The notes under the pieces were generated by a model, which had not been told where the DNA came from, did not search any database, and worked only from the letters and a program-made list of their open reading frames with translations. Of a stretch of DNA of 32,000 nt, positions 1,524 to 31,191 are shown in pieces. Positions within the stretch are counted from its first letter, which is position 1; each line of letters opens with the position of its first letter. This stretch comes from Nevskia sp. (GTDB lineage Bacteria > Pseudomonadota > Gammaproteobacteria > Nevskiales > Nevskiaceae): assembly GCA_021732745.1 (NCBI GenBank), contig JAKFUK010000001.1, forward strand, positions 42,931 through 74,930, read 5' to 3'. Made by a program: the position numbers and the translations under genes.

Positions 1524-1559
1524 TGTCCCGCCATTTTTTCCGTCGCTGAGCACGACCCG

Positions 1560-3219: not shown

Positions 3220-3253
3220 TCCATTCAACACGACAGACACACCCAGACGACAA

Positions 3254-5595: not shown

Positions 5596-5629
5596 ACCCA
5601 GCACCCCTCACCCAATCAAAGAACCGCAC

Positions 5630-7791: not shown

Positions 7792-7857
7792 TTTGGTTTT
7801 GCCTTCATCCGCATGCTGAGATTTCAACCCAGCCCACTCTCACAGGAACTACTGCAA

Positions 7858-8663: not shown

Positions 8664-8690
8664 GGCCGCCAGACTCAGGTCTGGCCGGCC
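8664..8690. terminator. GC-rich stem-loop between convergent operons; no U-tract
   Basis: The arm ggccgccagac (8664-8674), loop tcag and arm gtctggccggcc (8679-8690) pair with one bulge. It sits between the crotonase stop (8643) and the stop of the minus-strand ORF (8675-8677). Confidence 0.3.
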
Positions 8691-11402: not shown

Positions 11403-11542
11403 TTGTCCCCTCCTCGGATTCATCTGCGTCTATCCATGGCGATGCCGACCGGCGCGCGGGACTCGCGACACCGTAATCGGCACCGTCATGGACGACAGCG
11501 TTTTGTTTTTCGGTATCGCGACCCGCGATGCGAAGTGGCGAC

Positions 11543-12337: not shown

Positions 12338-12570
12338 GCTTTGTCTCCTGATCAGCGGGGGGAAATCTGGCAGAAACCGGCCGGGTGCAAGGCGCAGCCT
12401 TTGGGAGCCGGGCGCAGGTCTTGTTGACGGCAAAGGCTAGTCGGGGCCGCAGTGACGCCGCGCGCGATGCTCTCCCGCGAATGGACCGACCGATGGATCG
12501 ATTCCGTCATTTTTTTGCTCCTCGCCGCGAGCCCCGTAAACGGGGTCTGTCGAGCTGACTAGAATCCATA

Positions 12571-14582: not shown

Positions 14583-14639
14583 CTGAGATTCGCGTTCCTG
14601 AATGTGATGGTTTGGAAAGTGAAAGATTCAGCCCGTCGC

Positions 14640-15128
14640 CTAGGGACGGGCCACCTGCGGCTTCTTGCCCCGGCGATAGACCAGCAGCGTGCGGCGAAAC
14701 GAAATCACCAGCACGCCGTTCTGGTTGTGACCCTCGGTGCGCACCGTGACCACGCCGACGTCCGGCCGCGAGCGTGACTCGCGCGTCTCCAGCACCTCGG
14801 AGCGCGAGTAGAGCGTGTCACCCTCGAATACCGGGTTCGGCAGCCGCACCTCGTCCCAGCCCAGGTTCGCGAACACGTTCTGTGAAACGTCGGTGACGCT
14901 CTGGCCGGTGACGAGCGCCAGCGTCAGACAGGAATTGATCAGCGGGCGCCTGAACTCGGTCTGCGCGGCGTAGTGCTGGTCGAAGTGCAGCGGCGCGGTG
15001 TTCTGCGTCATCAGCGTGAACGAGATGTTGTCGTTCTGCGTCAGCGTGCGGCCCAGCGGATGGGGGTAGACATCGCCCACCTCGAAATCCTCGAAAAAGC
15101 GTCCTTCCCAGCCGGTCTTGACCGCCAT
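14640..15128 (-). CDS. MaoC-like (R)-specific enoyl-CoA hydratase/dehydratase
   Basis: 162 aa, single hot-dog domain. FEDFEVGDVYPHPLGRTLTQNDNISFTLMTQNTAPLHFD...GDTLYSRSEVLETRESRSRPDVGVVTVRTEGHNQNG. Upstream of gcdH on the same strand. Confidence 0.8.
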   Translation of the reverse strand: MAVKTGWEGRFFEDFEVGDVYPHPLGRTLTQNDNISFTLMTQNTAPLHFDQHYAAQTEFRRPLINSCLTLALVTGQSVTDVSQNVFANLGWDEVRLPNPVFEGDTLYSRSEVLETRESRSRPDVGVVTVRTEGHNQNGVLVISFRRTLLVYRRGKKPQVARP

Positions 15129-16551: not shown

Positions 16552-16618
16552 CAGCTGCCGAATACACAATGCGAAACGATTCTGACTGCACCGCGCGATG
16601 CGCGGTGGGAGAACCATC

Positions 16619-18076
16619 ATGACGGATACCCGAGCCTTCAACTCCGCCGACCTGCACTCACTCGAGGGCTGGGGCGGCGGACCGGAGATGAGTCACTTCG
16701 AAGGCGTGATGTGGCGCCTGGACGTCAACCCGCACATGCGTTCGACCATGACCGGGGTGGAGATCCTCGACCACGCGCCGGACTGGCAGCGTCTGCGCGC
16801 CGCCCACGAGCGCCTCACGGCGTCGATTCCGCGCTTCAGGCAGCGCGTGGTGGAACCCCTGTTCGGTCTGGGCACGCCGCACTGGGTGGATGACCCGGAC
16901 TTTTCGCTCGACTACCACCTGCGCCGCCTGCGCGTGCCGGAACCGGCCACGCCGCGTCAGTTGCTGGAACAGGCGCAGTGGATCGCGATGACGCCCTTCG
17001 ACCGCGCCCGCCCGCCGTGGGAGGTGATCCTGATCGAGGGCCTGGCCGACGGCCGCGCGGCCTACGTGCTGAAAATGCACCACGCCCTGTCCGACGGCCA
17101 CGGCATGATGCAGTTGCTCTCGCAGGCACACAGCCACAGCGCCCAACCAGGACCGCCGGTGGAACAGCCGGCGCGCCAGCCCGCCGCCCCGCTGCCCTCC
17201 ACCGGTGCGGTGCTGGGGCGGCAAGTGCGCGCAGGCCTGTCGCGACTGCCGCAGCAGACGCGCAAGCTGGTCGCCGACGTGGCGCAGGGCCTGCAGCGTC
17301 CTGACGCGGCGCGCGAGGCACTGCGATATGTGCAGTCAGCAGCGCGCATCCTCGGCCGCAAGCCGGCACCCAAGTCGCCGCTGATCGCCGGCCGCAGCCT
17401 GTCATGGCATTTCGACGCGCTGGATTTTCCGCTGGACGATTTCAAGGCCGCCGCCAAGCGTGCCGGTGCCAGCCTCAACGATGCCTACATCGCCGGTATC
17501 GCCGGCGGGTTCCGGCGCTATCACGAGCAACTCGGCCAGCCCATCGCCAAGTTGCCCATCGTGTTCCCCGTCAGCGTACGCACCGCGGCGGACGGCCTCG
17601 GCGGCAACCGTTTCGTCGGTGGCCAATTCGACGCGCCGCTGGACGAACCCGATCCGGTCGCCTGCATGAAGACGGTCGGCGCGTTCGTGGAGACACTGCG
17701 CGCGGAGCCGGCGCTCGACGTGCTGTTGCGCGTGATGCCGATTGTCGGCCGCCTGCCCACGCCGCTGCTCGGCAAGATGATGTCCGGCGTCACTGCCGCC
17801 CAGGACGTGCAGGCCACCAACGTGCCGGGGCTGCGCCGCCCGGTGTACATCGCCGGTGCGAGAGTCACCCACTTCTTCGGCTTCGGTCCCCTGCCCGGCT
17901 GCGCCGCCATGTTCGCGATGCTCTCGCACGACCAGCGCTGCTGCATCGGCATCAACACCGACGCCGCCGCCGTGCGCGAGCCGGATCGCCTGGTGGAATG
18001 CCTGCGCCTGAGCTTCGACGAGATCATGGGCATTCCCGGAATCACCGAGGTCTTCGCCGGGCCGGGCAAGCCGTAG
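16619..18076 (+). CDS. Wax ester synthase / diacylglycerol O-acyltransferase (WS/DGAT) family
   Basis: 485 aa counted from MTDTRAF, with a GGGAGA SD 8 nt upstream. Catalytic HHxxxDG motif as MHHALSDGHG. Conserved PLNRARPPW-like segment TPFDRARPPWEVILIEGL and C-terminal NVPG motif (QATNVPGLRRPVYIAG). Confidence 0.85.
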   Translation: MTDTRAFNSADLHSLEGWGGGPEMSHFEGVMWRLDVNPHMRSTMTGVEILDHAPDWQRLRAAHERLTASIPRFRQRVVEPLFGLGTPHWVDDPDFSLDYHLRRLRVPEPATPRQLLEQAQWIAMTPFDRARPPWEVILIEGLADGRAAYVLKMHHALSDGHGMMQLLSQAHSHSAQPGPPVEQPARQPAAPLPSTGAVLGRQVRAGLSRLPQQTRKLVADVAQGLQRPDAAREALRYVQSAARILGRKPAPKSPLIAGRSLSWHFDALDFPLDDFKAAAKRAGASLNDAYIAGIAGGFRRYHEQLGQPIAKLPIVFPVSVRTAADGLGGNRFVGGQFDAPLDEPDPVACMKTVGAFVETLRAEPALDVLLRVMPIVGRLPTPLLGKMMSGVTAAQDVQATNVPGLRRPVYIAGARVTHFFGFGPLPGCAAMFAMLSHDQRCCIGINTDAAAVREPDRLVECLRLSFDEIMGIPGITEVFAGPGKP

Positions 18077-18091
18077 GGAACTTCGTCGGCC

Positions 18092-18127
18092 GGGAGTCGG
18101 CACGACACTGACGTCGTGCCAACTCCC
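18092..18127 (+). terminator. Long GC-rich stem-loop immediately after WS/DGAT; no U-tract
   Basis: GGGAGT-c-GGCACGAC [actgac] GTCGTGCC-a-ACTCCC gives 14 bp of stem with one mismatch. It starts 16 nt after the TAG at 18074-18076 and is followed by an A-run (aacaaaaaag). Confidence 0.4.
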
Positions 18128-18165
18128 GCGGCCGAACAAAAAAGAAGCCTCTTTGCCCCTCGCAA

Positions 18166-18185
18166 TCTAACAGGTGTTTGTTAGA
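18166..18185. promoter_or_regulatory. Perfect 7-bp inverted repeat TCTAACA-N6-TGTTAGA upstream of the 11-gene operon; candidate operator
   Basis: tctaacaggtgtttgttaga lies 75 nt upstream of the ATG at 18260. It shares TCTAACANNTGTTTG (13 of 15 positions) and TTAGACTGA (9 of 9) with the 15199-15240 region. Confidence 0.45.
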
Positions 18186-18259
18186 CTGACGCCTCGCAGC
18201 CGGGATGTCTGTCGCTTGCATAACGCCGCTGCGATCCATCACGTGACCGAGGAACAAGC

Positions 18260-19723
18260 ATGATCGGCATCACCTGTTACGGCGCCTATGTGCCAAGACT
18301 GCGGCTCAGCCGTGCCGCGGCGGCCCAGGCCAACGCATGGGCCAATCCGGGCCTGCTCGCCCAGGCGCGCGGCGAGCGCTCGATGGCCAACTGGGACGAG
18401 GACAGCCTGACGATGGCGGTGGAAGCCGCACGCGACGCGCTGGCCGGCCGCAACACGGACGGCATCGGCGCCCTCTACTTCGGCTCCACCACGCATCCCT
18501 TCGCCGACCGCCAGAACGCGGGCCTGGTCGCCTCCGCGCTCGACCTGCCGGAATCGATCAGTTCCTCCGACTTCGGCGGCGCGCAGAAGGCCGGCACCGC
18601 CGCGCTGATCGCAGCACTCGACCGCGCGACGGCCGGACGCCCGGGCGAGGCCCTGGTGGTGGCCGCCGAACATCGCCGGGCGCGTCCCGGCAGCGCCCAG
18701 GAGTTGCAGTACGGCGATGCCGCCGCTGCCTTCACGATCGGCAATTCCGCAGTGATTGCCGAGTTCCTCGGCAGCCACAGCGTGTCGGTGGATTTCGTCG
18801 ATCATTACCGCGCGACGGGCCAGGAATTCGATTACATCTGGGAAGAGCGCTGGCTGCGCGACGAGGCGTTCCAGAAGTGGGTGCCGGCCGCGGTGACAGC
18901 CGGGCTGGAAAAAATTGGGATCGCCCCCGGCAGCATCCATCACTTCGTGCTGGCCGAGCCGGTCGCCAAGCTCTCCGCGCTGGTCGCCAAGCGTTGCGGC
19001 ATCACCGAGACCGCCATCGCCGACAGCCTGCTCGGCGTGGTCGGACATGCCGGCTCGGCGCACGCCCCGCTGATGCTTGCCGCGGCACTGCAGAAGGCGC
19101 AAGCCGGACAGACCATCGTGGTCGTCGGCTTTGGCCAGGGTTGCGACGTGCTGGCCTTCCGCACCACCGCCGCGCTGGGCGAACTGCCCGCGCGCAGCGG
19201 CGTCGCCGGCAGTCTCAAGCGCCGCAAGGAAGAAAAGAATTACCCGAAGTTCCAGTCCTTCAACGAGACCGTCTCGCCGGAAAAAGGTCTGCGCGGCGAA
19301 GCCAATCCGCAGACCGCGCTGTCGGCGATGTACCGCAACCGCCGCATGCTGTCCGGGCTGGTCGGGGGCAGTTGCACGAAGTGCGGCACCGCGCAGTTCC
19401 CGCCCGCCGACATCTGCGTCAATCCGTCCTGCCATCACCAGGGACCGATGCAGCCGTACCGCTTCGCCGACGAGGCGGGCCGCATCAAGACCTGGTCCGC
19501 GGACTGGCTCACCTACACGCCCGACCCGCCCGCGCACTACGGCATGGTGGAGTTCGAGCGCGGCGGTCGCTTCGTCGCCGACATCACCGACTGGGATCTC
19601 GGCAAGGTCGAGGTCGGACAGCCGGTCCGCATGGTGTTCCGCGTGCGCGGGCGCGATGCGCAACGCGGCATGGTTCGCTATTTCTGGAAGGCCGCGCCGC
19701 TGGCCGGCACGGGGGAGCACTGA
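18260..19723 (+). CDS. Fusion protein: an HMG-CoA synthase/KAS III-like domain (catalytic triad substituted) plus a C-terminal DUF35 zinc-ribbon/OB-fold domain
   Basis: 487 aa. The N-terminal part aligns by eye with HMGCS (GITCYGAYVPRLRL, NWDEDSLTMAVEAARDAL, GFGQGCDV). However it has GSTTHPF where GTES is expected, GGAQKAGTAAL where EACxGxTA is expected, and LAEPVAK where FHxPxxK is expected. The C-terminal part has CTKC...CVNPSC plus an OB-fold (YGMVEFERGGRFVADITD...VGQPVRMVF). Confidence 0.8.
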   Translation: MIGITCYGAYVPRLRLSRAAAAQANAWANPGLLAQARGERSMANWDEDSLTMAVEAARDALAGRNTDGIGALYFGSTTHPFADRQNAGLVASALDLPESISSSDFGGAQKAGTAALIAALDRATAGRPGEALVVAAEHRRARPGSAQELQYGDAAAAFTIGNSAVIAEFLGSHSVSVDFVDHYRATGQEFDYIWEERWLRDEAFQKWVPAAVTAGLEKIGIAPGSIHHFVLAEPVAKLSALVAKRCGITETAIADSLLGVVGHAGSAHAPLMLAAALQKAQAGQTIVVVGFGQGCDVLAFRTTAALGELPARSGVAGSLKRRKEEKNYPKFQSFNETVSPEKGLRGEANPQTALSAMYRNRRMLSGLVGGSCTKCGTAQFPPADICVNPSCHHQGPMQPYRFADEAGRIKTWSADWLTYTPDPPAHYGMVEFERGGRFVADITDWDLGKVEVGQPVRMVFRVRGRDAQRGMVRYFWKAAPLAGTGEH

Positions 19724-19724
19724 G

Positions 19725-20930
19725 ATGAGCAGCGGAATTCGCGACAAGGTCGCCATCCTGGGAATGGGCTGCTCGCGCTTCGGCGAGCGCTGGGACATGG
19801 GTGCCGAGGAACTGATGGTGGAGTCCTTCACCGAGGCTCTCACCGACGCCGGCATCGGCCGCGAGCAGGTTCAGGCCGCCTGGCTGGGCTCCTGCATGGA
19901 CGAGGTCAACATCGGCAAGTCGGCGCTGCCGGCCTCGATGGCCCTGCGCCTGAACAATATCCCGGTGACGCGAGTCGAGAACTACTGCGCCACCGGCACC
20001 GAGGCCTTTCGCGGCGCGGTGTATGCGGTGGCGTCCGGTGCCTGCGACATCGCGCTCGCCATCGGCGTGGAAAAACTCAAGGACACCGGCTACGGCGGAT
20101 TGCCGGGGCTGGATGTCGGCTCGATGCCGCCGCTGTGGTGGCCGAACCTGTCGGCACCCGGTGTGTTCGCACAGGTCGCGAGCGCCTACATGAACCGCTA
20201 CAAGGTGCCGCGCGATGTGCTCAAGCGCGCGCTCGCGGAAATTTCCGCCAAGAGCCACGCCAACGGCGCCAAGAACCCGAAGGCGCATCTGCGCAACCCG
20301 GTGAGCTGCGACACCATCATGGCCTCGCCGATGATCGCCGAGCCGCTGGGCCTGTTCGACTGCTGCGGCGTGTCCGACGGCTCGGCCGCGGCCATCGTCA
20401 CCACGCCGGAGATCGCCAGGTCGCTGGGCAAGCATCCCGACCAGATGGTCACGGTCAAGGCGCTGCAACTCGCGCTGTCGAATGGTTCCGAAGGCGGCTA
20501 CAACGACTGGGACGGCTCCTACATCCACACCACGCGCGTCGCCGCGAAGCGTGCTTACGCCGAAGCCGGCATCACCCGGCCGCGCGATGAAATCTCGATG
20601 TTCGAGGTTCACGACTGCTTCTCGATCACCGAACTGGTGACGATGGAGGACCTGTCACTGTCCTCCGATGGCGGCGCGATCAAGGACGTGATGGACGGCT
20701 TCTACAACGCCGACGGCAAGATTCCCTGCCAGATCGACGGCGGCCTCAAGTGCTTCGGCCATCCGATCGGCGCGTCCGGCATCCGGATGGTCTACGAGAT
20801 GTACCTGCAACTGCTCGGCCGCGCCGGCGAGCGTCAGCTCAAGAACCCGCGCTACGGCCTGACCCACAACCTCGGTGGCTTTCCGCACCAGAACGTCGTC
20901 GGCATTTCCATCGTCGGACGCTACCAATGA
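19725..20930 (+). CDS. SCP-x / archaeal-type thiolase (PhlC-like), with catalytic residues present
   Basis: 401 aa counted from MSSGIRDKVAILGMGCSRFGE, with a GGGGGAG SD upstream. Nucleophile Cys in VENYCATGTEAF, plus VHDCFS and KCFGHPIGASG. It starts 1 nt after the upstream stop. Confidence 0.85.
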   Translation: MSSGIRDKVAILGMGCSRFGERWDMGAEELMVESFTEALTDAGIGREQVQAAWLGSCMDEVNIGKSALPASMALRLNNIPVTRVENYCATGTEAFRGAVYAVASGACDIALAIGVEKLKDTGYGGLPGLDVGSMPPLWWPNLSAPGVFAQVASAYMNRYKVPRDVLKRALAEISAKSHANGAKNPKAHLRNPVSCDTIMASPMIAEPLGLFDCCGVSDGSAAAIVTTPEIARSLGKHPDQMVTVKALQLALSNGSEGGYNDWDGSYIHTTRVAAKRAYAEAGITRPRDEISMFEVHDCFSITELVTMEDLSLSSDGGAIKDVMDGFYNADGKIPCQIDGGLKCFGHPIGASGIRMVYEMYLQLLGRAGERQLKNPRYGLTHNLGGFPHQNVVGISIVGRYQ

Positions 20931-20964
20931 ATTTCATCTTTCAACTGCACCGGAAAACCTGCGC

Positions 20965-22143
20965 ATGAAACCACTCGCGGCCATTGTCGCCGTGTCCGAG
21001 ATGAAGCCCGGACGCTACCCGAACTACAACGGCATGGAGATGTACCGGCAGGTCATCTCGCAGTTCCTGCGCGAATGGCCGCAACTGCGGCCCTCGGATA
21101 TCGGTGGCCTGCTGTCAGCACCCGCCGGCATGGCCTCGGCCGACGGCACCGATGTGTTCGCGCACGAAAAGATCTCGGAAGAACTCGGCATCGAGCCGAC
21201 CTTCAGCGAGACCATCAATGCCGGCGGCGGCACCTACGCGCTGATGCTGATCCGCGCGTCCCTGGCCATCGAGCGCGGACTCTGCGATTCCGTGCTCTGC
21301 CTGGGTGCCGGGCGCTTCCCCAACGTGGGCAGCGGCATGGCCGAGATGATGAGCAAGCTGATCAGCCATCCCGAGTTCGAATATCCGTACGGCACCTATA
21401 TCCCGCCGATCTTCGCGCTCAACGCCACGCGCCACATGCACGAATTCGGCACCACGCGCGAGCAGCTCGCGCAGGTCGCGGTGTCGCAGCGCGAATGGTC
21501 GCTGCTGCATCCGGATGCGCTGATGGCCCCGCAGGGGCGGCTGACGATCGACAAGGTGCTGTCCTCGCGCCCGATCACCTACCCGTTCAATCTGCTCGAC
21601 TGCTCGGTGCCCAGCGAAGGCGGATCGGCGGTGCTGGTGGTGTCGCCGAAGATCGCCCAGCGCTACGCCAAGAAACCCTGCTTCCTGTATGGCTTCGGCG
21701 AGAAGCACACTCATTCCAGCATCAGCCAGGCGCATGACCTGACCACGCTCGGCTCCAGGGAAACCTCGGCGCAGGCCTACCGCATGGCCGGTGTCGGACC
21801 CAAGGACATGGACTTCGCCCAGCTCTACGACTCCTTCAGCATCAACCCGATCATCTACGCCGAAGATCTTGGCCTCTGCGCCAAGGGCCAGGGCGGCGCG
21901 TTCTTCGCCGGCGGCCGCACCGCGCCGGGCGGCGAATTCCCGGTCAATACCTATGGCGGGCTGATGTCCTTCGGCCACGTCGGCGATGCCTCCGGCCAGA
22001 CCATGATCGTGGAAGCGGCACGCCAGATCATGGGTATTGCCGGCGAAGCACGCCAGTTGAAGAAAGCCGATCTCGGCGTCGTTCACTGCTACGGCGGAAT
22101 GATGTCCGAGCACGCCACCCTCGTTCTCGGGAGCGCGTCATGA
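20965..22143 (+). CDS. Thiolase-like protein lacking the catalytic Cys/His residues; candidate non-thiolytic enzyme or scaffold
   Basis: 392 aa. Collinear with the preceding thiolase (GLCDSVLCLGAGR against GACDIALAIGVEK). However it has INAGGGTYA where NYCATGTEA stands, LYDSFS where VHDCFS stands, and MSFGHVGDASG where KCFGHPIGASG stands. Confidence 0.75.
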   Translation: MKPLAAIVAVSEMKPGRYPNYNGMEMYRQVISQFLREWPQLRPSDIGGLLSAPAGMASADGTDVFAHEKISEELGIEPTFSETINAGGGTYALMLIRASLAIERGLCDSVLCLGAGRFPNVGSGMAEMMSKLISHPEFEYPYGTYIPPIFALNATRHMHEFGTTREQLAQVAVSQREWSLLHPDALMAPQGRLTIDKVLSSRPITYPFNLLDCSVPSEGGSAVLVVSPKIAQRYAKKPCFLYGFGEKHTHSSISQAHDLTTLGSRETSAQAYRMAGVGPKDMDFAQLYDSFSINPIIYAEDLGLCAKGQGGAFFAGGRTAPGGEFPVNTYGGLMSFGHVGDASGQTMIVEAARQIMGIAGEARQLKKADLGVVHCYGGMMSEHATLVLGSAS

Positions 22144-22556
22144 GCAACCCCGCCGTCAACCCCAAGCCGATCCCCGAAATCAACGCCCACAGCAAGCCCT
22201 ACTGGGACGGCGCACAGCGCGGCGAGCTGATGATTCAGCGCTGCCGCGGCACCGGCAAGCCCTTCATGTACGCGCGCTGCTGGAGCCCCTTCGACTTCTC
22301 GCCCGACCCCATCTGGGAAAAGGCCAGCGGGCTGGGCACGGTGTTCAGCTACACCGTCGTGTACCAGCCGCCGTATGCGGCATTCAAGGCCGACTGCCCG
22401 TTCGTGATGGCCATCATCCAGCTCGACGAAGGTCCGCAGATGATGAGCAACGTCCTCAACTGCGATCCGGAATCCGTGCGCATCGGGATGAAGGTCAAGG
22501 TCTGCTTCGAGACCCGCAGCGGCGGCTTCAAGATTCCGCAGTTCGAACCGGCCTGA
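22140..22556 (+). CDS. DUF35 OB-fold (acyl-CoA-associated) protein with a degenerate zinc ribbon
   Basis: 138 aa. The start overlaps the upstream stop (ATGA). N-terminal SKPYWDGAQRGELMIQRC...ARC holds only two Cys instead of CxxC...CxxC. The OB-fold core is GTVFSYTVVYQP...FVMAIIQLDEGPQMMSNVL...GMKVKVCFE. Confidence 0.75.
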   Translation: MSNPAVNPKPIPEINAHSKPYWDGAQRGELMIQRCRGTGKPFMYARCWSPFDFSPDPIWEKASGLGTVFSYTVVYQPPYAAFKADCPFVMAIIQLDEGPQMMSNVLNCDPESVRIGMKVKVCFETRSGGFKIPQFEPA

Positions 22557-22578
22557 ATCCTTCAATAGCGAGCATCCC

Positions 22579-23721
22579 ATGAGCGAAGAATCCGTCGCTG
22601 CCGTCCGTGAAGCCGCCGAGGGGCTCACCCGCGGCATCTCGCGCGAATACTGGTTGCAGTGCGCGAAGGAAAAGAAGTTTCCGCAGAAACTCTGGGACGC
22701 GATGGCCGAAACCGGCCTTCTCGGTCTGACCGTGCCCGAGGAATACGGCGGCAGCGGCGGCGGCCTGTCCGAACTGATGGTGCTCAACGAGGTCACTGCC
22801 CGCGCCGGCGTCATCTCGCTGTTCTTCGTGCTCGGCAGCTTCGCGCGCATGCCGATCATCAAGCACGGCACACCGGCGCAGATCAGAAAATTCGTCACGC
22901 CCACCGCCACCGGCGAGGGCAAGATGTGCTTCGGCGTGACCGAGCCCAATGCCGGCACCAACACCTTCCGCCTGCAGACCACGGCCGCAAGGAACAGCGG
23001 CGGCTGGCTGGTCAACGGCTCCAAGGTGTTCATCACCGGCGCGAAGGAATCGACGTCGATGCTGCTGATCGCGCGCACCTCGGCGTTCGATCCGGCCAAG
23101 CCGCGCGGCGGGCTGTCGCTGTTCATCCTGGATTCGCACACGCCGGGCATCGAGTACCAGCGCCTGAACATCGAGGTGCTCGGCGAAAGCCAGTACCTGG
23201 TGTTCTTCAAGGATGCGCAGCTGCCGCAGGACGCGCTGATCGGCGAAGAAGGCAAGGGCATGAAGTACCTGTTCGACGGCCTCAACACCGAGCGCCTCGC
23301 GCTGGCCTCGATGGCCGTGGGCCTGGGCAATCGCGCGCTGGACAAGGCGGTGGCGTACTCGAAGGAGCGCTCGCCTTTTGGCACGCCCATTGGCAGCTAC
23401 CAGGGCCTGCAGCACCCCATGGCACGCGCCAAGGCGCATCTCGAAGCCTCGCGCCTGATGATGCTGGAAGCCGCCCGCACCTTTGATCGTGGGGAGGACG
23501 CCGGCCCGCTGTCGAACATGGCCAAGCTGCTCACCTCGGAGGCCTGTGACGAGGCGGTGGACATTGCGCTGCAGGTCCATGGCGGCTACGGCTTCGACCA
23601 GGATTACGACGTGGTCACGCTGTGGCCCTTCGCCCGCCTGATGCGCGTGGCGCCGGTCAACAACGAGATGATCCTCAACTACATCGGCGAGCACGTGCTC
23701 GGCCTGCCGCGCTCGTACTGA
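22579..23721 (+). CDS. Acyl-CoA dehydrogenase family protein; paralog of 3254-4417, lacking the canonical catalytic Glu
   Basis: 380 aa. FGVTEPNAGTNTF and GSKVFITG are present. The C-terminus is RLMRVAPVNNEMILNYIGEHVLGLPRSY, with Pro where the YEGT-type Glu is expected. Confidence 0.85.
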   Translation: MSEESVAAVREAAEGLTRGISREYWLQCAKEKKFPQKLWDAMAETGLLGLTVPEEYGGSGGGLSELMVLNEVTARAGVISLFFVLGSFARMPIIKHGTPAQIRKFVTPTATGEGKMCFGVTEPNAGTNTFRLQTTAARNSGGWLVNGSKVFITGAKESTSMLLIARTSAFDPAKPRGGLSLFILDSHTPGIEYQRLNIEVLGESQYLVFFKDAQLPQDALIGEEGKGMKYLFDGLNTERLALASMAVGLGNRALDKAVAYSKERSPFGTPIGSYQGLQHPMARAKAHLEASRLMMLEAARTFDRGEDAGPLSNMAKLLTSEACDEAVDIALQVHGGYGFDQDYDVVTLWPFARLMRVAPVNNEMILNYIGEHVLGLPRSY

Positions 23722-23750
23722 ACCACCTGCTCACTCGAACGATCCCCGTC

Positions 23751-24224
23751 ATGGCCAATGATCTGTCCGTCACCGTCGCGCCCTATCTGTTCAGGGAACG
23801 CTGGAACGAAAGCCCGTTCATGCAGGCCCAGGGGCTGACGGCCGAGGAGATCGCGCCCGGCGAGGTGGCGATTCACCTGCGCTCGCCCACGCTGGCCCAG
23901 CGCGGCGCGGGCGGGCCGCCGGACGCCATCAACGGCGGGGTGATTTCCTACATGTTCGACGGCGCGCTGGGCTATGCCATCGTCTCGGCACAGATCCCGC
24001 GCCTGGAGGCTGCAGGCCTGTCCCGGGCTGCCTATTCGCAGGTCACGATGAATCTCGACATCACCTACCTCGCGGCCGCGCAGGGCGGGTCGTTCAGCGC
24101 CGTCGGCAGGGTGTTGCGCGTCGGCCGCAGCACCGCCTTTGCGCAGGGCGAACTGCTCAACGGACGTGGCGAGGTCTGCGCCACCGCCAAGGGCATCTGG
24201 CGCGTGTTCTGGCCGCTGCAGTGA
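23751..24224 (+). CDS. PaaI/hot-dog fold thioesterase family protein
   Basis: 157 aa counted from MANDLSV. NGGVISYMFDGALGYAI and the C-terminal GRVLRVGRSTAFAQGELLNGRGEVCATAKG are typical of PaaI/YigI-type hot-dog thioesterases. Confidence 0.7.
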   Translation: MANDLSVTVAPYLFRERWNESPFMQAQGLTAEEIAPGEVAIHLRSPTLAQRGAGGPPDAINGGVISYMFDGALGYAIVSAQIPRLEAAGLSRAAYSQVTMNLDITYLAAAQGGSFSAVGRVLRVGRSTAFAQGELLNGRGEVCATAKGIWRVFWPLQ

Positions 24225-24255
24225 GCCGCCCACTTCTTCTTAACCGAATCCGAAC

Positions 24256-26036
24256 ATGAAACCTGCTTCCCTACGCATCGGCTGCGCCTCCGGCTTCTGG
24301 GGCGACACCGAGTACGCCGCCGCCCAGCTGGTGACCAGAGGCAACATCGATGTGCTGGTCTTCGACTACCTGGCCGAAGTCACCATGTCCCTGCTGATCC
24401 GGGTCAAGGCCAAGGATCCCAACGCCGGTTTTGCGCCGGACTTCGTGACCACGCTCAAGCCGCTGCTCAAGGAGATCAAGGCGCGCGGCATCAAGGTGGT
24501 GAGCAATGCCGGCGGCGTCAATCCCGCCGCCTGCCGCGAAGCGCTGGCCAGGGCGGCACAGGCCGAGGGCGTGGAGCTGAAGATCGCCGCCGTGCTGGGC
24601 GATGACCTGCTGCCGCAGACGGAAAGCGCACGCGGTGAAGGCACGCGCGAGATGTTCTCCGGCCAGGCGATGCCGGCAAGGATCATGAGCGCCAATGCCT
24701 ATCTCGGTGCCTTCCCGATCGCCGCCGCGCTGGAAGCCGGCGCGGACATCGTCGTGACCGGCCGCTGTGTCGACAGCGCGGTGGTGCTCGGCCCATTGAT
24801 CCAGGCCTTCGGCTGGAAGCAGCACGACTACGATCAATTGGCCCAGGGCAGCCTGGCCGGCCACATCATCGAATGCGGCGCGCAGTGCACTGGCGGCAAC
24901 TACACCGACTGGCATCTGGTCAAGGGCTGGGACGACATGGGCTTCCCGATCGCCGACTGCTCGCCCGACGGCAGCTTCGTGATCGAAAAGCCCGCGGGCT
25001 CCGGCGGCCTGATCGTGCCGTCCACGGTGGGCGAGCAGATGGTCTACGAGATCGGCGATCCGCGCGCCTACCTGCTGCCCGACGTGAACTGCGACTTCAC
25101 CCAGGTGACGCTCGAACAGGTCGGCGAGCAGCGCGTGCGCGTCGCGGGTGCCAGGGGCAGCGCACCCACGCCACACTGCAAGGTCAGCGCGACCTATCTC
25201 GACGGCTTCCGCGCCACCGCCATGTTCATGATCGGCGGCATCGACGCCTCGACCAAGGGCACGCGCACCGCCGAGGCGCTGCTCGCGCGCTGCCGGCGTC
25301 TGTTCGCCGAGCGCAGCCTGGGAGACTTCAGCGAAACGAGCATCGAGGTCCTTGGTGCCGAAGCGACCTACGGCCCGCATGCGCGGGTGCAGCCGCGCGA
25401 GGTAATGGTGAAGATCGGCGCGCGTCACCCGAACAAGGATGCGCTGGACATCTTCTCCCGCGAGATGGCGCCGATGGCGCTGGCCACCTCCCCCGGCATC
25501 ACCGGCTTCCTCGGCGGCCGTCCCAAGGTGCAGCCGGTGGTGCGCCTGTTCTCCTACCTGTGGCCGAAATCGATGATCCCGGTGCGCCTGGAACTCGATG
25601 GCCAGGACCTGGCCTGCCCGCAGATGAGCGGCCTGCCTTTCGATCCCGCAAAGCTCCCCGACATCGGTGGACCGCTACCGGCAGCCGCGGCGTTCGCCGA
25701 TGGCACGCGCCTGGTGCCGCTGGTGCAGCTCGCCTACGGCCGCAGCGGCGACAAGGGCGACTCCGCGAACATCGGCATCCTCGCGCGCAAGGCCGACTAC
25801 CTGCCCTACATCCGCGCGGCGCTGACGGCTGATGCGGTCGCGAAATGGTTTGCCCACCGCGCCGAAGGGCCGGTGCATCGCTGGGACATGCCCGGTGTCC
25901 TGGGCCTGAATTTCCTGCTGGAAAAAGCGCTCGGCGGCGGCGGCATGGCCTCGATCCGCATTGATCCCCAGGGCAAGGCCTACGCGCAGATGCTGCTCGA
26001 CTTCCCCGTTCCCGTGCCTGCCGGGCTTGTGACCGA

Positions 26037-26040
<4 letters not shown>
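24256..26040 (+). CDS. DUF1446 / AtuA-like (acyclic terpene utilisation A family) protein
   Basis: 594 aa. The N-terminus is LRIGCASGFWGDTEYAAAQLVTRGNIDVLVFDYLAEVTMSLL, and the length of roughly 590 aa matches my recollection of AtuA-type proteins. Confidence 0.75.
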
Positions 26041-27518
<1,478 letters not shown>

Positions 27519-27528
27519 ACAATCGACC

Positions 27529-28035
27529 ATGAAAAAAATTCTAGCCATCGACGGCGAGCAGTACGCCTGCACGCTGACACGCACACCCGGCAGCCTGCGC
27601 CTGCAGGCCGGCGAACGCAGCTTCGACTGCGCGCTCGACGCGCTCGGCGACGGCCGCTACCGCGTGCGCGCCGGCGATGCGCGGCGCGAAGCGCTGATTG
27701 CCCAGCACGGTGATCAGGTCTGGATCCACCTGGATGGCCGCACGCACACGATCCAGCGCATAAACCCGCTCGACCTCCTCGCCGCCAGCGGCCGCGGCGG
27801 CGCGGACAGCGCCCTGTCGCCGATGCCCGGCACCATCCTCACCGTGCAGGTGAAGGTCGGCGAGACGGTGAAATCCGGCCAGGTCCTGCTCACCATGGAA
27901 AGCATGAAACTGGAAGTGACCATCACTGCGCCGCACGACGGCGAGATCGCCGAAGTGCTGTGCGCACCCGGACAGAGCGTGCCGGTCAAGGCCACCCTGG
28001 TGCGCTTCGCGGCAAAGGCGGAGGCCACCTCATGA
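27529..28035 (+). CDS. BT-like domain plus biotin carboxyl carrier (biotinyl/lipoyl) domain protein
   Basis: 168 aa. C-terminal biotinyl domain PMPGTILTVQVKVGETVKSGQVLLTMESMKLEVTITAPHDGEI, with the candidate biotinyl-Lys codon at 27907-27909. No obvious SD. The first codons are AT-rich (atgaaaaaaattcta). Confidence 0.8.
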   Translation: MKKILAIDGEQYACTLTRTPGSLRLQAGERSFDCALDALGDGRYRVRAGDARREALIAQHGDQVWIHLDGRTHTIQRINPLDLLAASGRGGADSALSPMPGTILTVQVKVGETVKSGQVLLTMESMKLEVTITAPHDGEIAEVLCAPGQSVPVKATLVRFAAKAEATS

Positions 28036-29630
28036 TGCAGCGTATCGAAACGCGGATATCGCCGGCCTCGACCGCGTTCCGCGCCAACAGCGTGGCGATG
28101 CAGCGCATCTGCGGCGACTTCAAGGCCCTGCAGGAACGCATCCGTCACGAGCGCCCGCAACGCGACATCGAACGCCTGCGGCGGCAGAAGAAACTGCTGG
28201 TGCGCGAGCGGCTGGAATTGCTGCTCGACCCAGGCACGCCGTTTCTCGAACTCTCCAGCATCGCGGCCTACGATCAATTCAACGGCGAGGCGCCGGGCGC
28301 GAACGTCATCGCCGGCATCGGCGTGGTCGGCGGCCGCGAGGTGATGATCCACGCCGACGATTCCAGCAACAAGGGCGGCGCCTGGTATCTCTTGTCGGCG
28401 CCGAAGATCGTGCGCGCGCTGGAAATCGCCATCGAGAACCGCCTGCCCGTCGTACACCTCTGCGACAGTGCGGGCGGCTATCTGGAAGACCTCTCCGGCG
28501 TGTATGTGATGGGCGGCCGCGTGTTCCGTCACCAGTGCATCCTGTCGAAGATGGGCATTCCGCAGGTCGCCGTGGTGCTCGGACACTGCACCGCCGGTGG
28601 CGCCTACGTGCCCGCCCTGTGCGAACACACGATCATGGTGCGCGGCACCGGCGCGGTGTTTCTCGGCGGCCCGCCGCTGGTGAAGGCCGCGACCGGCGAG
28701 GAAGTCACGGTCGATGCGCTCGGCGGTGCCGACATGCATACCTCGGTGTCCGGCGTGGCGGACTACCCGGTGGACAGCGAGGAAGAAGGCATCGCGCTGG
28801 CCCGCGCCATCGTCTCCAGCTTCTCGCAGCCGAAGAAGCACTTCGACTGGGTGGATGCCGAGGCGCCCTACTACGATCCGCGCGAGCTGTACGGCATCGT
28901 TCCGGTGGACTACAAGACCCAGTTCGACATGCGCGAGGTGATCGCGCGCATGGTCGATGCCAGCCGCTTCCAGGAATACCAGCCGAACTACGGCACGACC
29001 CTGGTCTGCGGATGGGCGCGGCTGTGGGGCTGCAAGGTGGGCCTGCTCGGCAACAACGGCGTGCTGTTCTCCGACAGCTCGCTCAAGGCCGCGCACTTCA
29101 TCCAGCTCTGCAACCAGATGGGCACGCCGATGATCTTCCTGCAGAACACCACCGGCTACATGATCGGGCGCGAGTACGAGGAGCGCGGCATCACCAAGGA
29201 CGGTGCCAAGATGCTGATGGCACAGGCCGGCTCCGAAGTGCCCAAGCTCACCGTCGTCACCAGCGGCGCGTTCGGCGCCGGCTACTACGGCATGTGCGGC
29301 CGCTCCTGGGACCCGCGCATGATCTTCTCCTGGCCGCAGGCCAAGATGGGCGTGATGGGGCCGGAGCAGGCCGGCAACACGCTGGCCGACGTCAAGCTGC
29401 GCCAGTTGCGCCGTGATCGTCCCGAGGCCGGCGACGAGGAAGTGGCCGAGCTGCGCAAGCGCACGCGCGAGAAATCCGAGCGTGAGACCAGCACCCTGTG
29501 GTTCTCCGCGCGCTGCCAGGACGACGGCGTGCTCGATCCGCTCGATACGCGCAACGCGCTCGGCATCGCGCTGTCCTGCGCGGCCAACGTGCCGCTCGCC
29601 GAGCAGCGCTATGGCGTGTTCCGGATGTGA
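28032..29630 (+). CDS. Acyl-CoA carboxylase carboxyltransferase (beta) subunit, methylcrotonyl-/geranyl-CoA carboxylase type
   Basis: 532 aa counted from MMQRIETR. ATGA overlap with the BCCP stop, and a GGAGG SD upstream. KLLVRERLELLLDPGTPFLELS, GGREVMIHADDSSNKGGAW, HCTAGGAYVPALC and FLGGPPLVKAATGE are present. Confidence 0.9.
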   Translation: MMQRIETRISPASTAFRANSVAMQRICGDFKALQERIRHERPQRDIERLRRQKKLLVRERLELLLDPGTPFLELSSIAAYDQFNGEAPGANVIAGIGVVGGREVMIHADDSSNKGGAWYLLSAPKIVRALEIAIENRLPVVHLCDSAGGYLEDLSGVYVMGGRVFRHQCILSKMGIPQVAVVLGHCTAGGAYVPALCEHTIMVRGTGAVFLGGPPLVKAATGEEVTVDALGGADMHTSVSGVADYPVDSEEEGIALARAIVSSFSQPKKHFDWVDAEAPYYDPRELYGIVPVDYKTQFDMREVIARMVDASRFQEYQPNYGTTLVCGWARLWGCKVGLLGNNGVLFSDSSLKAAHFIQLCNQMGTPMIFLQNTTGYMIGREYEERGITKDGAKMLMAQAGSEVPKLTVVTSGAFGAGYYGMCGRSWDPRMIFSWPQAKMGVMGPEQAGNTLADVKLRQLRRDRPEAGDEEVAELRKRTREKSERETSTLWFSARCQDDGVLDPLDTRNALGIALSCAANVPLAEQRYGVFRM

Positions 29631-29635
29631 TTGAC

Positions 29636-30799
29636 ATGAACGACACTGCCTCCAGTGAAGACGATGCGCTGATCGACGCCATCGAGCGCTTCCTCGCGGG
29701 CGAGGTGCGGCCGGTGGCCATCGCCCTCGAACAGGCCGACGAATATCCGAAGGCCATCGTCGAGCAGATGCGCGACATGGGCCTGTTCGGCGCCATCATT
29801 CCCGAGGCCTATGGCGGACTGGGGCTCAGCGCGCAGACCTACGCGCGCCTGATCGAGACGATCGCGGCCGAGTGGATGTCGCTGTCCGGCATCATCAACT
29901 CGCACCTGATCATGGCTTCGGCGGTGCTGCGTTTCGGCACGGAAGCTCAGAAGGAATATTTTCTGCCCCGCTTCGCCAGGGCCGAGCTGCGCGGCGGCAT
30001 CGCGCTGACCGAGCCGGACTGCGGCACCGACCTGCAGGCCATCCGCACCGTCGCCCGCCGCGAAGGCGAGCACTACCTCGTCAACGGCGCCAAGACCTGG
30101 ATCACCAACGGGCTGCACGGCAACTGCTTCGCGCTGCTGGTCAAGACCGACCCCAAGGCCGACCCGCGCCACCGCGGCATGAGCCTGTTCATTGCCGAAA
30201 AAGGCCCCGGCTTCTCGGTGCCGCGCAAGCTGCCGAAACTGGGCTACCGCGGCATCGACACCGTGGAGATGCTGTTCCAGGACTACCGCATTCCGGCCGA
30301 GCGCCTGGTCGGCGGCGTCGAGGGCCGCGGACTGCAGCAGATTCTCGGCGGCCTGGAACTGGGCCGCATCAACGTCGCCGCGCGCGGGGTCGGCGTCGCG
30401 CGCTCGGCTTACGAGGAGGCGCTGAGTTATTCGCAGCAGCGCAAGACCTTCGGCAAGCCGATCTGCGAGCACCAGGCGATCCAGCTCAAGCTGGCCGACA
30501 TGGCCACGCGCGTGCAGGCCGCCCGGCTGCTGGTGGACTCCGCCGCCCGCGCCTACGACGCCGGACGGCGCTGCGATCTGGAGGCGGGCATGGCCAAGCT
30601 GTTCGCCACCGAAGCCGCGATGGAAAACGCCGCCGAATCTCTGCGCATCCACGGCGCCTACGGCTATTCGCGCGAAGTGCGGGTGGAACGGCTGTACCGG
30701 GACGCGCCCCTGCTGGCGATCGGCGAAGGCACCAATGAAATGCAGCGCCTGATCATCGCGCGCCGCCTGCTCGACGCGGCGGCCCCTCGCCAGCAATAG
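29636..30799 (+). CDS. Acyl-CoA dehydrogenase (canonical; isovaleryl-/citronellyl-CoA dehydrogenase-like)
   Basis: 387 aa counted from MNDTASSEDD. IALTEPDCGTDL and GAKTWITNG are present. The catalytic Glu is retained in PLLAIGEGTNEMQRLIIAR. Confidence 0.9.
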   Translation: MNDTASSEDDALIDAIERFLAGEVRPVAIALEQADEYPKAIVEQMRDMGLFGAIIPEAYGGLGLSAQTYARLIETIAAEWMSLSGIINSHLIMASAVLRFGTEAQKEYFLPRFARAELRGGIALTEPDCGTDLQAIRTVARREGEHYLVNGAKTWITNGLHGNCFALLVKTDPKADPRHRGMSLFIAEKGPGFSVPRKLPKLGYRGIDTVEMLFQDYRIPAERLVGGVEGRGLQQILGGLELGRINVAARGVGVARSAYEEALSYSQQRKTFGKPICEHQAIQLKLADMATRVQAARLLVDSAARAYDAGRRCDLEAGMAKLFATEAAMENAAESLRIHGAYGYSREVRVERLYRDAPLLAIGEGTNEMQRLIIARRLLDAAAPRQQ

Positions 30800-30809
30800 A
30801 GGATCTTGT

Positions 30810-30844
30810 GAATTCCTCTACCGCGCTCGGCAGTAGAAGAATTC
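30810..30844. terminator. Stem-loop between convergent operons (12-bp stem, one mismatch); no U-tract
   Basis: GAATTCCTCTAC [cgcgctcggca] GTAGAAGAATTC. An alternative smaller hairpin, TAGAGGA-N10-TCCTCTA (30797-30820), includes the ACAD stop codon. Confidence 0.3.
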
Positions 30845-30870: not shown

Positions 30871-31191
30871 TCAGTGCTGACCCAGCGGCGTTCGGGCCAC
30901 GATGCCGTCGAGCGACTGGGAGAGCTTGATCTGGCAGCCCAGTCTCGACCCGGGTCCGACACACTCGGCGAGTTCCAGCAACGATTTTTCCATGTCCTCT
31001 GCCGGCACCAGCTTGTCCAGCCATTCGGGCTCGATGAACAGGTGGCAGGTGGCACATGCGCAGCAACCGCCACAATCACCGTCGATACCCGGTATCAGGT
31101 TGCCAACCGCTGCTTCCATCAGCGACGTACCGTCGGCGACTTCGACCGAGCGGACGGTGCCGTTGTGTTCGATAAACGTGACCTTGATCAT
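30871..31191 (-). CDS. [2Fe-2S] ferredoxin, putidaredoxin/adrenodoxin type
   Basis: 106 aa. MIKVTFIEHNGTVRSVEVADGTSLMEAAV, cluster motif CGGCCACATCH, and a distal Cys in RLGCQI. Directly downstream of the P450 on the same strand. Confidence 0.9.
   Translation of the reverse strand: MIKVTFIEHNGTVRSVEVADGTSLMEAAVGNLIPGIDGDCGGCCACATCHLFIEPEWLDKLVPAEDMEKSLLELAECVGPGSRLGCQIKLSQSLDGIVARTPLGQH

Follow-up and report, generated by a model that had tools for sequence, protein, structure and literature searches.

The DNA analyzed here is a 32,000-nucleotide stretch from Nevskia sp. (order Nevskiales; assembly GCA_021732745.1, contig JAKFUK010000001.1, positions 42,931 to 74,930 of the forward strand), to which we refer as the window (G+C content ~66%). 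It contains, at positions 18260–30799, a run of 11 genes, G1–G11, all on the plus strand and separated by intergenic distances of −4 to +34 nt, that brings together unusual members of the thiolase superfamily, AtuA, a biotin-dependent carboxylase, and two acyl-CoA dehydrogenases (ACADs). G1 (18260–19723) encodes a 3-hydroxy-3-methylglutaryl-CoA synthase (HMGCS)-like domain fused to a zinc finger/OB-fold ChsH2 (DUF35) domain (Pfam and NCBIfam), G2 (19725–20930) a thiolase (PRK06157, 673 bits), G3 (20965–22143) a thiolase-fold protein with a Thiolase_C_1 domain (Pfam), and G4 (22140–22556) a stand-alone DUF35 protein (OB_ChsH2_C, 85 bits). These are followed by an ACAD with a displaced catalytic Glu (G5, 22579–23721; Pfam), a divergent hotdog protein of the 4HBT/PaaI-like type (G6, 23751–24224; 4HBT, E = 2.8e-9), and AtuA (G7, 24256–26040; DUF1446/PF07287 with 498 bits and AtuA_ferredoxin with 91 bits, Pfam). 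The next two genes encode the first and second halves of a split carboxylase alpha subunit, that is, the biotin carboxylase (BC; G8, 26037–27518; Pfam and NCBIfam) and a BC–carboxyltransferase interaction (BT) domain joined to the biotin carboxyl carrier protein (BCCP) with its MKL motif (G9, 27529–28035; Biotin_lipoyl and BT_MCC_alpha matches). The run ends with a carboxyltransferase (CT) of the methylcrotonyl-CoA carboxylase (MCC)/geranyl-CoA carboxylase (GCC) lineage (G10, 28032–29630; Carboxyl_trans) and a canonical ACAD (G11, 29636–30799; IGEGTNE). The domain assignments in a preliminary description of this DNA, which was made from the sequence alone, were all confirmed by Pfam and NCBIfam.

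The junctions are tight: a single nucleotide separates G1 from G2 (19723/19725), 4-nt ATGA-type overlaps occur at 22140 (G3/G4), 26037 (G7/G8), and 28032 (G9/G10), and the remaining gaps are 5–34 nt; we retain these start codons because the same ones are called on public contigs that encode an identical AtuA protein. A hairpin on the plus strand at 18091–18128 (arms of 16 nt, 94% complementary) follows the stop codon of the preceding gene (18076) and has a folding energy of −37.9 kcal/mol (z −6.1; 0 of 200 shuffles equally stable); a second hairpin, at 30810–30844 on the same strand (arms of 15 nt; −17.3 kcal/mol, z −3.2), begins 11 nt past the stop codon of G11. Both lack a T-run, so a terminator scan flagged neither and we judged them by folding energy. 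The upstream hairpin is likely a transcript boundary (for want of a T-run it is a presumptive intrinsic terminator), and the downstream hairpin is likely the 3' end of the operon transcript. Between the upstream hairpin and G1 lies a perfect palindrome, TCTAACA-N6-TGTTAGA (18166–18185; 75–94 nt 5' of the G1 ATG), that occurs once in the window (0.11 expected by chance; at least one match in 9 of 100 shuffles). In the public loci that we compared (numbered with the prefix L), the nearest relatives (L001, L003, and L090) have it at an unchanged distance, and it was not found in L006, L007, L089, and L091; we regard it as a candidate operator. A scan for the sigma-70 consensus upstream of G1 found no promoter. 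The co-directional 11-gene block, its short gaps or overlaps, and its flanking stem-loops are thus as previously described, and this gene anatomy suggests that G1–G11 are co-transcribed.

G1 and G2 resemble a degradative thiolase complex. Residues 2–328 of G1 align to the archaeal HMGCS (6esq_I) and residues 358–481 to its DUF35 subunit (6esq_E); at the positions of the HMGCS catalytic triad Glu/Cys/His, the alignment to 6esq_I places Thr/Gln/Ala, and with this triad lost we reject G1 as an active HMG-CoA synthase. The zinc-ribbon cysteines of its DUF35 domain (C372, C375, C386, and C391) are invariant across the family. G2, aligned to 6esq_A and 7yvy_A, retains the nucleophile Cys (NYCATG), HDCF, and the GH motif (FGHP). 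From these residues G1 is predicted to be a catalytically dead scaffold subunit for G2, and G2 is predicted to be an active SCP2/archaeal-type thiolase partnered by G1. The same type of complex, PfACAT/HMGS-DUF35, was recently characterized in Pseudomonas fluorescens as a purely degradative thiolase (Nat Commun 2026, PMC12960953): it synthesizes neither acetoacetyl-CoA nor HMG-CoA, it thiolyses acetoacetyl-CoA, and the H294Y substitution in its HDxF motif nearly abolishes thiolysis; the authors describe it as an orphan ‘evolutionary intermediate’ without a pathway and cite DUF35-associated SCP2-type thiolases that accept bulky substrates, e.g., BbsAB. We assign G1/G2 to this type by architecture and by the residues Cys, HDxF, and GHx. 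The preliminary description had called the dead HMGCS::DUF35 and its thiolase an oddity; the HMGCS domain is dead as it stated, but the architecture has already been characterized in P. fluorescens. The G1 family is very large (>4,000 matches), and the G1–G2 pair is conserved in 80 GTDB loci, in which G2 is 65–73% identical.

The second thiolase-fold protein, G3, is of a different kind. It has Ala at the position of the nucleophile Cys (INAGGGT), as the earlier label of a Cys-less thiolase implied, and YDSF replaces HDCF, with the GH motif kept; the YD[A/S]F and GH motifs are present in all 118 aligned members of the G3 family. In the thiolase-fold aldolases Ltp2 (YDHF) and Sal (YDCY), the catalytic base is the Tyr of the YDxF/Y motif. 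Lacking the nucleophile Cys and having, like the H294Y variant of PfACAT, Tyr in the HDxF motif, G3 is rejected as a thiolase and is predicted, from the same residues, to be a retro-aldolase subunit. G3 has Ser at the position of Sal Cys304 and His338 at the position of Ltp2 Tyr344/Sal Gln352 (an approximate assignment, from the Tyr+50 spacing). Its neighbor G4 has a degenerate zinc ribbon (residues ~30–55) with two of the four Cys in the window protein and one of four in Panacagrimonas, Solimonas, and Algiphilus; nearly all other G4 homologs (~60 sequences) carry CxxC...CxxC, the loss of ligands is confined to the Nevskiales, and the DUF35 domain of G1, unlike G4, keeps all four. G4 adjoins G3 in all 38 metagenome loci of 12 kb or longer, and a G5-like ACAD and a crotonase are frequently found with the pair. 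In a Porticoccaceae metagenome-assembled genome (MAG), the pair precedes hotdog proteins and an ACAD; this company of hotdog hydratases and ACADs in other taxa matches the ACAD–hydratase–aldolase logic of steroid side-chain degradation. The earlier suggestion that a thiolase-fold/DUF35 pair supplies a C–C cleavage step is plausible given the aldolase-type Tyr in G3 and its DUF35 partner G4.

Of the two ACADs, G5 was described as atypical, and the description stands: the Glu of the YEG motif is lost (Pro; VAPVNNE replaces IYEGTNE), but LNTERL places a Glu at the position of Thr255 of medium-chain acyl-CoA dehydrogenase (MCAD) and Glu254 of isovaleryl-CoA dehydrogenase (IVD), that is, at the helix-G position used by IVD and long-chain acyl-CoA dehydrogenase (LCAD). 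Both the displaced Glu and VAPVNNE are conserved in orthologs, and because Glu occupies the IVD position we reject the readings that G5 is desulfinase-like or that it is a dead ACAD. A G5 ortholog (59–60% identical) follows AtuA in Betaproteobacteria; homologs of 39–53% identity (45–53% where directly downstream) stand beside G3–G4 in other loci. G11 has FadE3 (4iv6, 444 bits) as its best PDB match and scores alike against IVD, MCAD, and short-chain acyl-CoA dehydrogenase (SCAD), all at ~231–237 bits, so it is not an IVD ortholog. The PDB matches of G6 are weak and all to uncharacterized thioesterase-superfamily proteins. The 4HBT–AtuA adjacency (G6–G7) is kept in Rhizobacter and Acidovorax (52–57% identity), and the slot directly upstream of AtuA is occupied by a crotonase in Roseobacters and by the hotdog protein in Beta- and Gammaproteobacteria; because G6 holds the slot of the crotonase, it might, speculatively, stand in for the hydratase.

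The carboxylase belongs to the gamma-carboxylating lineage. G10 scores 524 bits against the beta subunit of P. aeruginosa MCC (PaMCC), 428 against the GCC beta subunit, and no more than 264 against the CTs of propionyl-CoA carboxylase (PCC) and acetyl-CoA carboxylase (ACC); by these scores we reject G8–G10 as PCC or ACC, and the preliminary description's alternative of a plain PCC or ACC finds no support in them. The best solved relatives of G10 are the MCC beta subunits of P. aeruginosa and human and AccD1 of M. tuberculosis, and it aligns from residue 4 to PaMCC, including the N-terminal helix that is absent from PCC. The insertion and Phe of the xxxHFG segment are present in PaMCC, human MCC, M. 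tuberculosis AccD1, 9tps, and 9yx0; in G10, MGG stands against the HFG of MCC, which places Gly at the position of Phe191, and the 3-residue MCC insertion (‘dre’) is absent. The GCC structure 5ikl_B aligns ungapped (100:100) to this stretch of G10, and the assignment of the Gly is based on these ungapped GCC coordinate ranges together with the MCC alignments; G10 orthologs likewise have neither the insertion nor Phe191. Reciprocal mutagenesis has established that the Phe191/Gly residue decides between methylcrotonyl-CoA and geranyl-CoA (Jurado et al.; PMC4673880), and the same work characterizes the GCC beta subunit by the N-terminal helix, Gly for MCC Phe191, and no 3-residue insertion; it also specifies that a gamma-carboxylase requires a methyl or methylene group gamma to the thioester, as in isoprenoid-type chains. 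By sequence, then, G10 is placed in the gamma-carboxylating (MCC/GCC) lineage and has an enlarged pocket like that of GCC, as the earlier comparison with a geranyl/methylcrotonyl-CoA carboxylase anticipated, and the pocket suggests chains longer than methylcrotonyl-CoA.

To our knowledge, AtuA has gone unexplained in terpene-utilization clusters ever since their description; an older proposal makes it a 3-hydroxy-3-alkylglutaryl lyase. G7 has one sequence match in the PDB, a weak one, to 9erq_A (‘AtuA family protein | Citramalate lyase, subunit A (cmlA)’). In a Foldseek search, the AF2 model of G7 (pLDDT 82.4, pTM 0.84) matches 9evf_A (‘Citramalate lyase - ADP - pyruvate complex’) with an E value of 1.4e-22 (TM 0.55/0.70, 496 columns); the next match has an E value of 2e-3, so 9evf_A is the only significant PDB fold match. 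The cmlAB genes of Raoultella (Berg laboratory) have been used to encode a lyase that converts citramalate to pyruvate and acetate (2026 preprint); a literature search for citramalate lyase with AtuA/CmlA found no primary paper and one preprint that uses the enzyme. Because the AtuA-family protein CmlA is a citramalate lyase and is the sole significant fold match of G7, the ‘missing lyase’ of the operon is probably AtuA itself; the release of acetate from a tertiary carbinol by Cml is the same kind of cleavage that the Atu pathway needs after carboxylation and hydration. On the strength of the model, we predict that G7 acts as a lyase on a tertiary 3-hydroxy-3-alkylglutaryl intermediate and sets acetate free; because it travels with acyl-CoA enzymes and carboxylases, either a CoA ester or a larger 3-hydroxy-3-alkylglutarate is its probable substrate. 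The preliminary description held that the function of AtuA is unclear and that a lyase is lacking; this is outdated, now that an AtuA-family citramalate lyase subunit A has been deposited. AtuA is generally associated with biotin carboxylases: the two are neighbors in Beta-, Alpha-, and Gammaproteobacteria and in one actinobacterium.

Among genomes, the block is conserved as a unit in the Nevskiales and is found in parts elsewhere. Polycyclovorans-like and Panacagrimonas contigs carry all 11 genes with their order unchanged, so the operon-like unit with conserved order is borne out by synteny across several Nevskiales genera. The contigs with the full block share its flanks: an ACAD–MaoC pair and DUF445 upstream, sometimes a wax-ester synthase/diacylglycerol acyltransferase (WS/DGAT) gene, and a ferredoxin–CYP153 pair downstream; in L095 and L096, genes for a copper membrane monooxygenase (CuMMO) and a TetR regulator are upstream. 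CYP153 and CuMMO are therefore, as first described, neighbors of the block, and they are syntenic in relatives. In L090, L098, and L091, G6 (85% identical; 61% in L091) and G7 (76–79%) stand out from flanking genes at 92–98%, as if the hotdog/AtuA cassette had been replaced by recombination within a conserved operon. In L003 (16466–21785), an algal-culture metagenome contig from a near-identical strain, G11 is shortened to 361 aa, and what directly follows it is not ferredoxin–CYP153 but KfrA, a phage-type integrase, and mercury-resistance genes; here a mobile element has inserted at the 3' border of the block. We reject a plasmid-borne block, since KfrA, the integrase, and the mer genes occur in L003 alone and the other contigs are long and chromosomal. 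In L089 (Algiphilus sp. W345), a Baeyer-Villiger/flavin monooxygenase (FMO)-type monooxygenase, a TetR gene, and an opposite-strand second carboxyltransferase with an ACAD are downstream (16589–21686), a hint of a link to ketone metabolism.

Outside the Nevskiales, G1–G2, G3–G4–G5, G5/G6/G7, and G7–G10 are seen separately. G7 is ~70% identical to proteins of many Burkholderiales, in which the order is CT, BC-BCCP, ACAD, ACAD, AAA, VWA, NUDIX/MBL, 4HBT, AtuA, and a G5-like ACAD (59–60%). The clusters of Rhizobacter (L086) and Acidovorax (L087) place an AAA (MoxR-like) ATPase, a VWA/CoxE protein, and a NUDIX–metallo-beta-lactamase (MBL) fusion between the carboxylase/ACADs and 4HBT–AtuA; this trio is constant in the betaproteobacterial AtuA clusters (L086 and L087, 4000–9500). 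On plasmids of Pseudosulfitobacter (Roseobacter), AtuA (62% identical) is preceded by a crotonase and followed by separate BC, BCCP, and CT genes, so that the AtuA–BC–BCCP–CT order of G7–G10 recurs; this downstream CT is 60% identical to G10, another CT just upstream is 74% identical, and a Liu-like carboxylase cluster is nearby. G3/G4-like pairs are found near AtuA/carboxylase clusters outside the Nevskiales in Rhizobacter, in the actinobacterium Prauserella, and in L145; in Prauserella the pair, with a MaoC-type hydratase after it, is divergent from an ACAD–CT–BC/BCCP–DinB–AtuA–ligase operon. The aldolase-like pair is a recurrent companion of AtuA, though not an obligatory one. The block is, then, a Nevskiales-specific concatenation of four widespread modules; that the 11 genes are one indivisible invention is not borne out, as the modules are found apart and relatives lack G5 or the carboxylase.

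The window contains further genes of acyl-CoA and hydrocarbon metabolism. An ACAD (13404–14582, minus strand; Pfam) and a MaoC/mesaconyl-CoA-hydratase-like protein (14640–15128, minus strand; Pfam), a candidate hydratase, form a pair (13404–15128) that is equally placed beside the block in L090, L091, L095, L096, L098, and L099; this MaoC protein is a candidate for the supplier of the hydration step that the operon lacks. A crotonase (7813–8643, plus strand; Pfam) is another candidate hydratase, and a CitE/HpcH-type TIM-barrel lyase (6997–7791, plus strand; Pfam) precedes it. The earlier claim that a hydratase and a TIM-barrel lyase are lacking therefore stands for the operon but not for the window; the absence of an AtuE crotonase and of AtuB/G dehydrogenases is borne out among the 11 genes. 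The crotonase and the lyase belong to a second operon-like run on the plus strand (36–8643) that also encodes an AMP-ligase, two family-III CoA-transferases, an ACAD (~3270–4417), and MmgE/PrpD, a set reminiscent of C5-dicarboxylate or itaconate-type degradation; homologs of its first CoA-transferase are found beside betaproteobacterial AtuA clusters (54%) and beside G1–G2 in Reyranellaceae (45–47%). The CuMMO operon, in C-A-B order, is on the minus strand (9277–12433) and is followed by a 195-aa open reading frame (ORF; 8675–9262) with no Pfam match; a homolog of this ORF (36%) is downstream of pmoB in a Nevskiaceae MAG (L006) that has two pmoC copies. The WS/DGAT wax-ester synthase gene (16619–18076) immediately precedes the block; in several relatives (e.g., L001 and L090) the block has such a gene on one side or on both, as would fit a hydrocarbon/lipid island. 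A 106-aa ORF on the minus strand (30871–31191), located between the operon and CYP153, has no Pfam match; it is probably the ferredoxin of CYP153, because its syntenic counterpart in L090 is annotated as Fer2 (2Fe-2S ferredoxin).

Ordinary beta-oxidation stalls at beta-substituted (methyl-branched) acyl-CoAs. We read the operon as a four-module system for the catabolism of acyl-CoAs with a substituent on the beta-carbon, most likely methyl; our confidence in this reading is evenly poised, and the order of the steps and the substrates are what we infer from the observed family memberships, motif states, and synteny. In the proposed route, an ACAD (G5, with its IVD/LCAD-type base, or the canonical G11) would form a 3-methyl-2-enoyl-CoA, the gamma-methyl group of which would be carboxylated by G8/G9/G10; the product would be hydrated by an enzyme encoded outside the operon (the MaoC protein at 14640–15128 or the crotonase at 7813–8643) or, alternatively, by G6; G7 would cleave the resulting tertiary alcohol to acetate and a 3-oxoacyl-CoA; and G2, on its dead HMGCS::DUF35 scaffold G1, would thiolyse the 3-oxoacyl-CoA. 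G3/G4 would provide a parallel, carboxylation-independent bypass in which a tertiary beta-hydroxyacyl-CoA is cleaved in a retro-aldol reaction to acetyl-CoA and a ketone. The substrates would probably come from the neighboring CYP153 and CuMMO acting on branched or isoprenoid hydrocarbons; three features, and these only, point to this class (branched alkanes/isoprenoids): a pocket like that of GCC, an ACAD of the IVD type, and the proximity of CYP153 and CuMMO. A literature search found no paper on this block (most subscription journals were outside the search), and no match to an already characterized pathway, which the preliminary description had named as a ground for abandoning its proposal, was found in the literature searched. 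The search for a link between Atu/GCC and pristane, phytane, or phytol found nothing relevant, and a paper on the pristane proteome of Alcanivorax makes no mention of carboxylase, Atu, or DUF35 proteins.

Several observations weigh against this reading. At the level of the enzymes, domain searches found no hydratase among the 11 genes of the operon; G3 lacks the second catalytic residue of Ltp2 (Tyr344) or Sal (Cys304), and its closest solved relative is an uncharacterized ‘thiolase’ (4u4e); G10 is overall nearer to MCC than to GCC; G11 is by score an ortholog of neither IVD nor AtuD; and G7 is just 17% identical to CmlA, the substrate of which is a free acid and not a CoA ester (2026 preprint). 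At the level of the genomes, an intact G5 is missing in Solimonas and Algiphilus (absent or truncated), and the Nevskiaceae MAG L006 has CuMMO and G1–G7 but no carboxylase within the flank, so the block may not be one linear pathway; the modules are mostly separate elsewhere (e.g., G1–G2 without G3–G11 in ~45 loci from taxa outside the Nevskiales), and 33 of 34 G3–G4 loci outside the Nevskiales have no AtuA within 10 kb (L145 is the exception).

The genomic observations would also fit an explanation in which the operon is a catabolic toolbox, that is, four modules (the thiolase complex, the aldolase-like/ACAD module, the hotdog/AtuA module, and the carboxylase/ACAD module) that have been gathered in one transcription unit beside alkane oxygenases and serve different substrates or pathways with no obligatory hand-over of intermediates. 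Every module is independent and far wider spread than the block, G5 or the carboxylase has been lost in relatives that keep the rest, and the dip in identity of G6 (85%) and G7 (76%) amid flanks of 92–98% would be cassette exchange; however, 4-nt overlaps cross the borders between modules (e.g., G7/G8 at 26037), several genera share one gene order, G3/G4-like pairs have come to lie near AtuA/carboxylase clusters independently in Rhizobacter, Prauserella, and L145, and all of the modules are aimed at one chemical problem, a blocked beta-carbon. We think this explanation possible but doubtful. Another arrangement would use every C–C enzyme of the block in one line, as a route for the assimilation of methyl ketones formed by sub-terminal oxidation of alkanes (CuMMO/P450, then an alcohol dehydrogenase): G3/G4 would act as an aldolase that joins acetyl-CoA and R-CO-CH3 to a 3-hydroxy-3-methylacyl-CoA; dehydration would give the 3-methyl-2-enoyl-CoA, the methyl group of which G8–G10 would carboxylate, with the ATP-driven carboxylation pulling the unfavorable aldol addition; and, after rehydration, AtuA would free acetate to leave R-CO-CH2-CO-SCoA, which G1/G2 would thiolyse. 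If true, this scheme would amount to a CoA-templated carboxylation of the ketone methyl group without an acetone carboxylase or a Baeyer-Villiger enzyme; we give the scheme as a whole a slim chance.

Two further explanations assume other substrates. The operon could degrade the side chains of alicyclic or bulky beta-substituted acids (naphthenic-acid or steroid-like) instead of acyclic methyl-branched chains, with G3/G4 cleaving a ring-borne tertiary beta-hydroxyacyl-CoA to a cyclic ketone and acetyl-CoA. The characterized enzymes Ltp2 and Sal, with their DUF35 partners, do act on steroid side chains, DUF35-associated SCP2-type thiolases accept bulky substrates (BbsAB, as cited in PMC12960953), and a biosensor study found that naphthenic-acid mixtures induce a response of the Pseudomonas atu genes; but the atu biosensor responded to acyclic acids and not to ringed naphthenic acids, domain searches found no steroid-ring or alicyclic-ring degradation genes among the genes of the window, and the gamma-carboxylase needs a methyl or methylene group gamma to the thioester (PMC4673880), so we consider this explanation unlikely. 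The operon could also encode the ordinary leucine/isovalerate (Liu) pathway, with G8–G10 as MCC and G11 or G5 as IVD, as the MCC beta subunits among the solved relatives of G10 and the Glu of G5 at the IVD position would allow. Against this, G10 lacks both hallmarks of MCC (Phe191 and the 3-residue insertion), G11 matches IVD no better than MCAD or SCAD, methylglutaconyl-CoA hydratase and HMG-CoA lyase are absent from the operon, and the Liu pathway has no use for AtuA, a dead HMGCS scaffold, or an aldolase-like pair; we regard it as highly improbable.

Under the branched acyl-CoA reading, the operon gives context to two orphan families, the dead-HMGS::DUF35/thiolase pairs and the large YD[A/S]F thiolase-fold clade with its DUF35 partners. 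It also makes the AtuA-lyase proposal directly testable, because here AtuA adjoins a GCC-like carboxylase in a unit without a crotonase-type or TIM-barrel lyase and has an acetate-releasing relative. The block, which lies between CuMMO and CYP153 genes in phytoplankton-/algae- and oil-associated Nevskiales, is a candidate marker for the degradation of branched/isoprenoid hydrocarbons, e.g., pristane, phytane, and phytol derivatives, which resist degradation more strongly than n-alkanes do.

Each module can be compared with a known system. Like PfACAT/HMGS-DUF35, G1 is an HMGS fused to DUF35 with the catalytic residues of HMGS lost, and G2, like PfACAT, keeps Cys, HDxF, and GHx and is predicted to catalyze degradative thiolysis; unlike the complex as described, G1/G2 heads a catabolic operon, and does so in the Nevskiales only. 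More distant kin are PhlACB and the archaeal thiolase/HMGCS/DUF35 complex; unlike the latter, which belongs to the mevalonate pathway, G1 is without the active Glu-Cys-His triad. G3 resembles the aldolases of Ltp2–ChsH2(DUF35) and Sal–Shy(DUF35) in lacking the nucleophile Cys and having the YDxF Tyr, in having a DUF35 partner that is always adjacent, and in its association with ACADs and hotdog hydratases in other taxa. The third motif position in the G3 family is, however, Ser or Ala instead of His or Cys, the GH histidine is retained (Tyr344 in Ltp2 and Gln352 in Sal), the DUF35 partner stands alone instead of being fused to MaoC and has lost zinc ligands in the Nevskiales, and there is no steroid context; judged by its catalytic residues, the G3/G4 pair belongs to neither the Ltp2 nor the Sal clade. 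G7 is in the same Pfam family as CmlA of the CmlAB system of Raoultella planticola (PDB 9ERQ/9EVF), has a CmlA-like fold, and, as proposed here, would likewise free acetate from a tertiary hydroxy acid; unlike CmlA, it has a fused ferredoxin-like domain.

For the block as a whole, the nearest comparison is with the Atu/Liu pathways of Pseudomonas, with which it shares AtuA, ACADs, and a carboxylase that belongs to the gamma-carboxylating lineage, has the Gly of GCC, and lacks the MCC insertion; the proposed logic is shared as well, in that a beta-methyl branch would be carboxylated, the product hydrated, and the branch then removed by a lyase. Unlike atuABCDEFGH, the operon is without the AtuE crotonase, the AtuB/G short-chain dehydrogenase/reductase (SDR), the AtuH ligase, and an adjacent AtuR (a crotonase, an AMP-ligase, and a TetR gene are found 5–18 kb upstream in other transcription units); in addition, BC and BT-BCCP, the two parts of its alpha subunit, are encoded by separate genes, and its CT is nearer to MCC than to GCC overall. 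Three elements of the block have no counterpart in atu: the hotdog protein beside AtuA, the thiolase with its dead HMGCS::DUF35 scaffold, and the aldolase-like pair of a thiolase-fold and a DUF35 protein. From these likenesses and differences we take the block to be a previously undescribed form of branched acyl-CoA catabolism of the Atu/Liu kind, the modules of which may function together as a single pathway.

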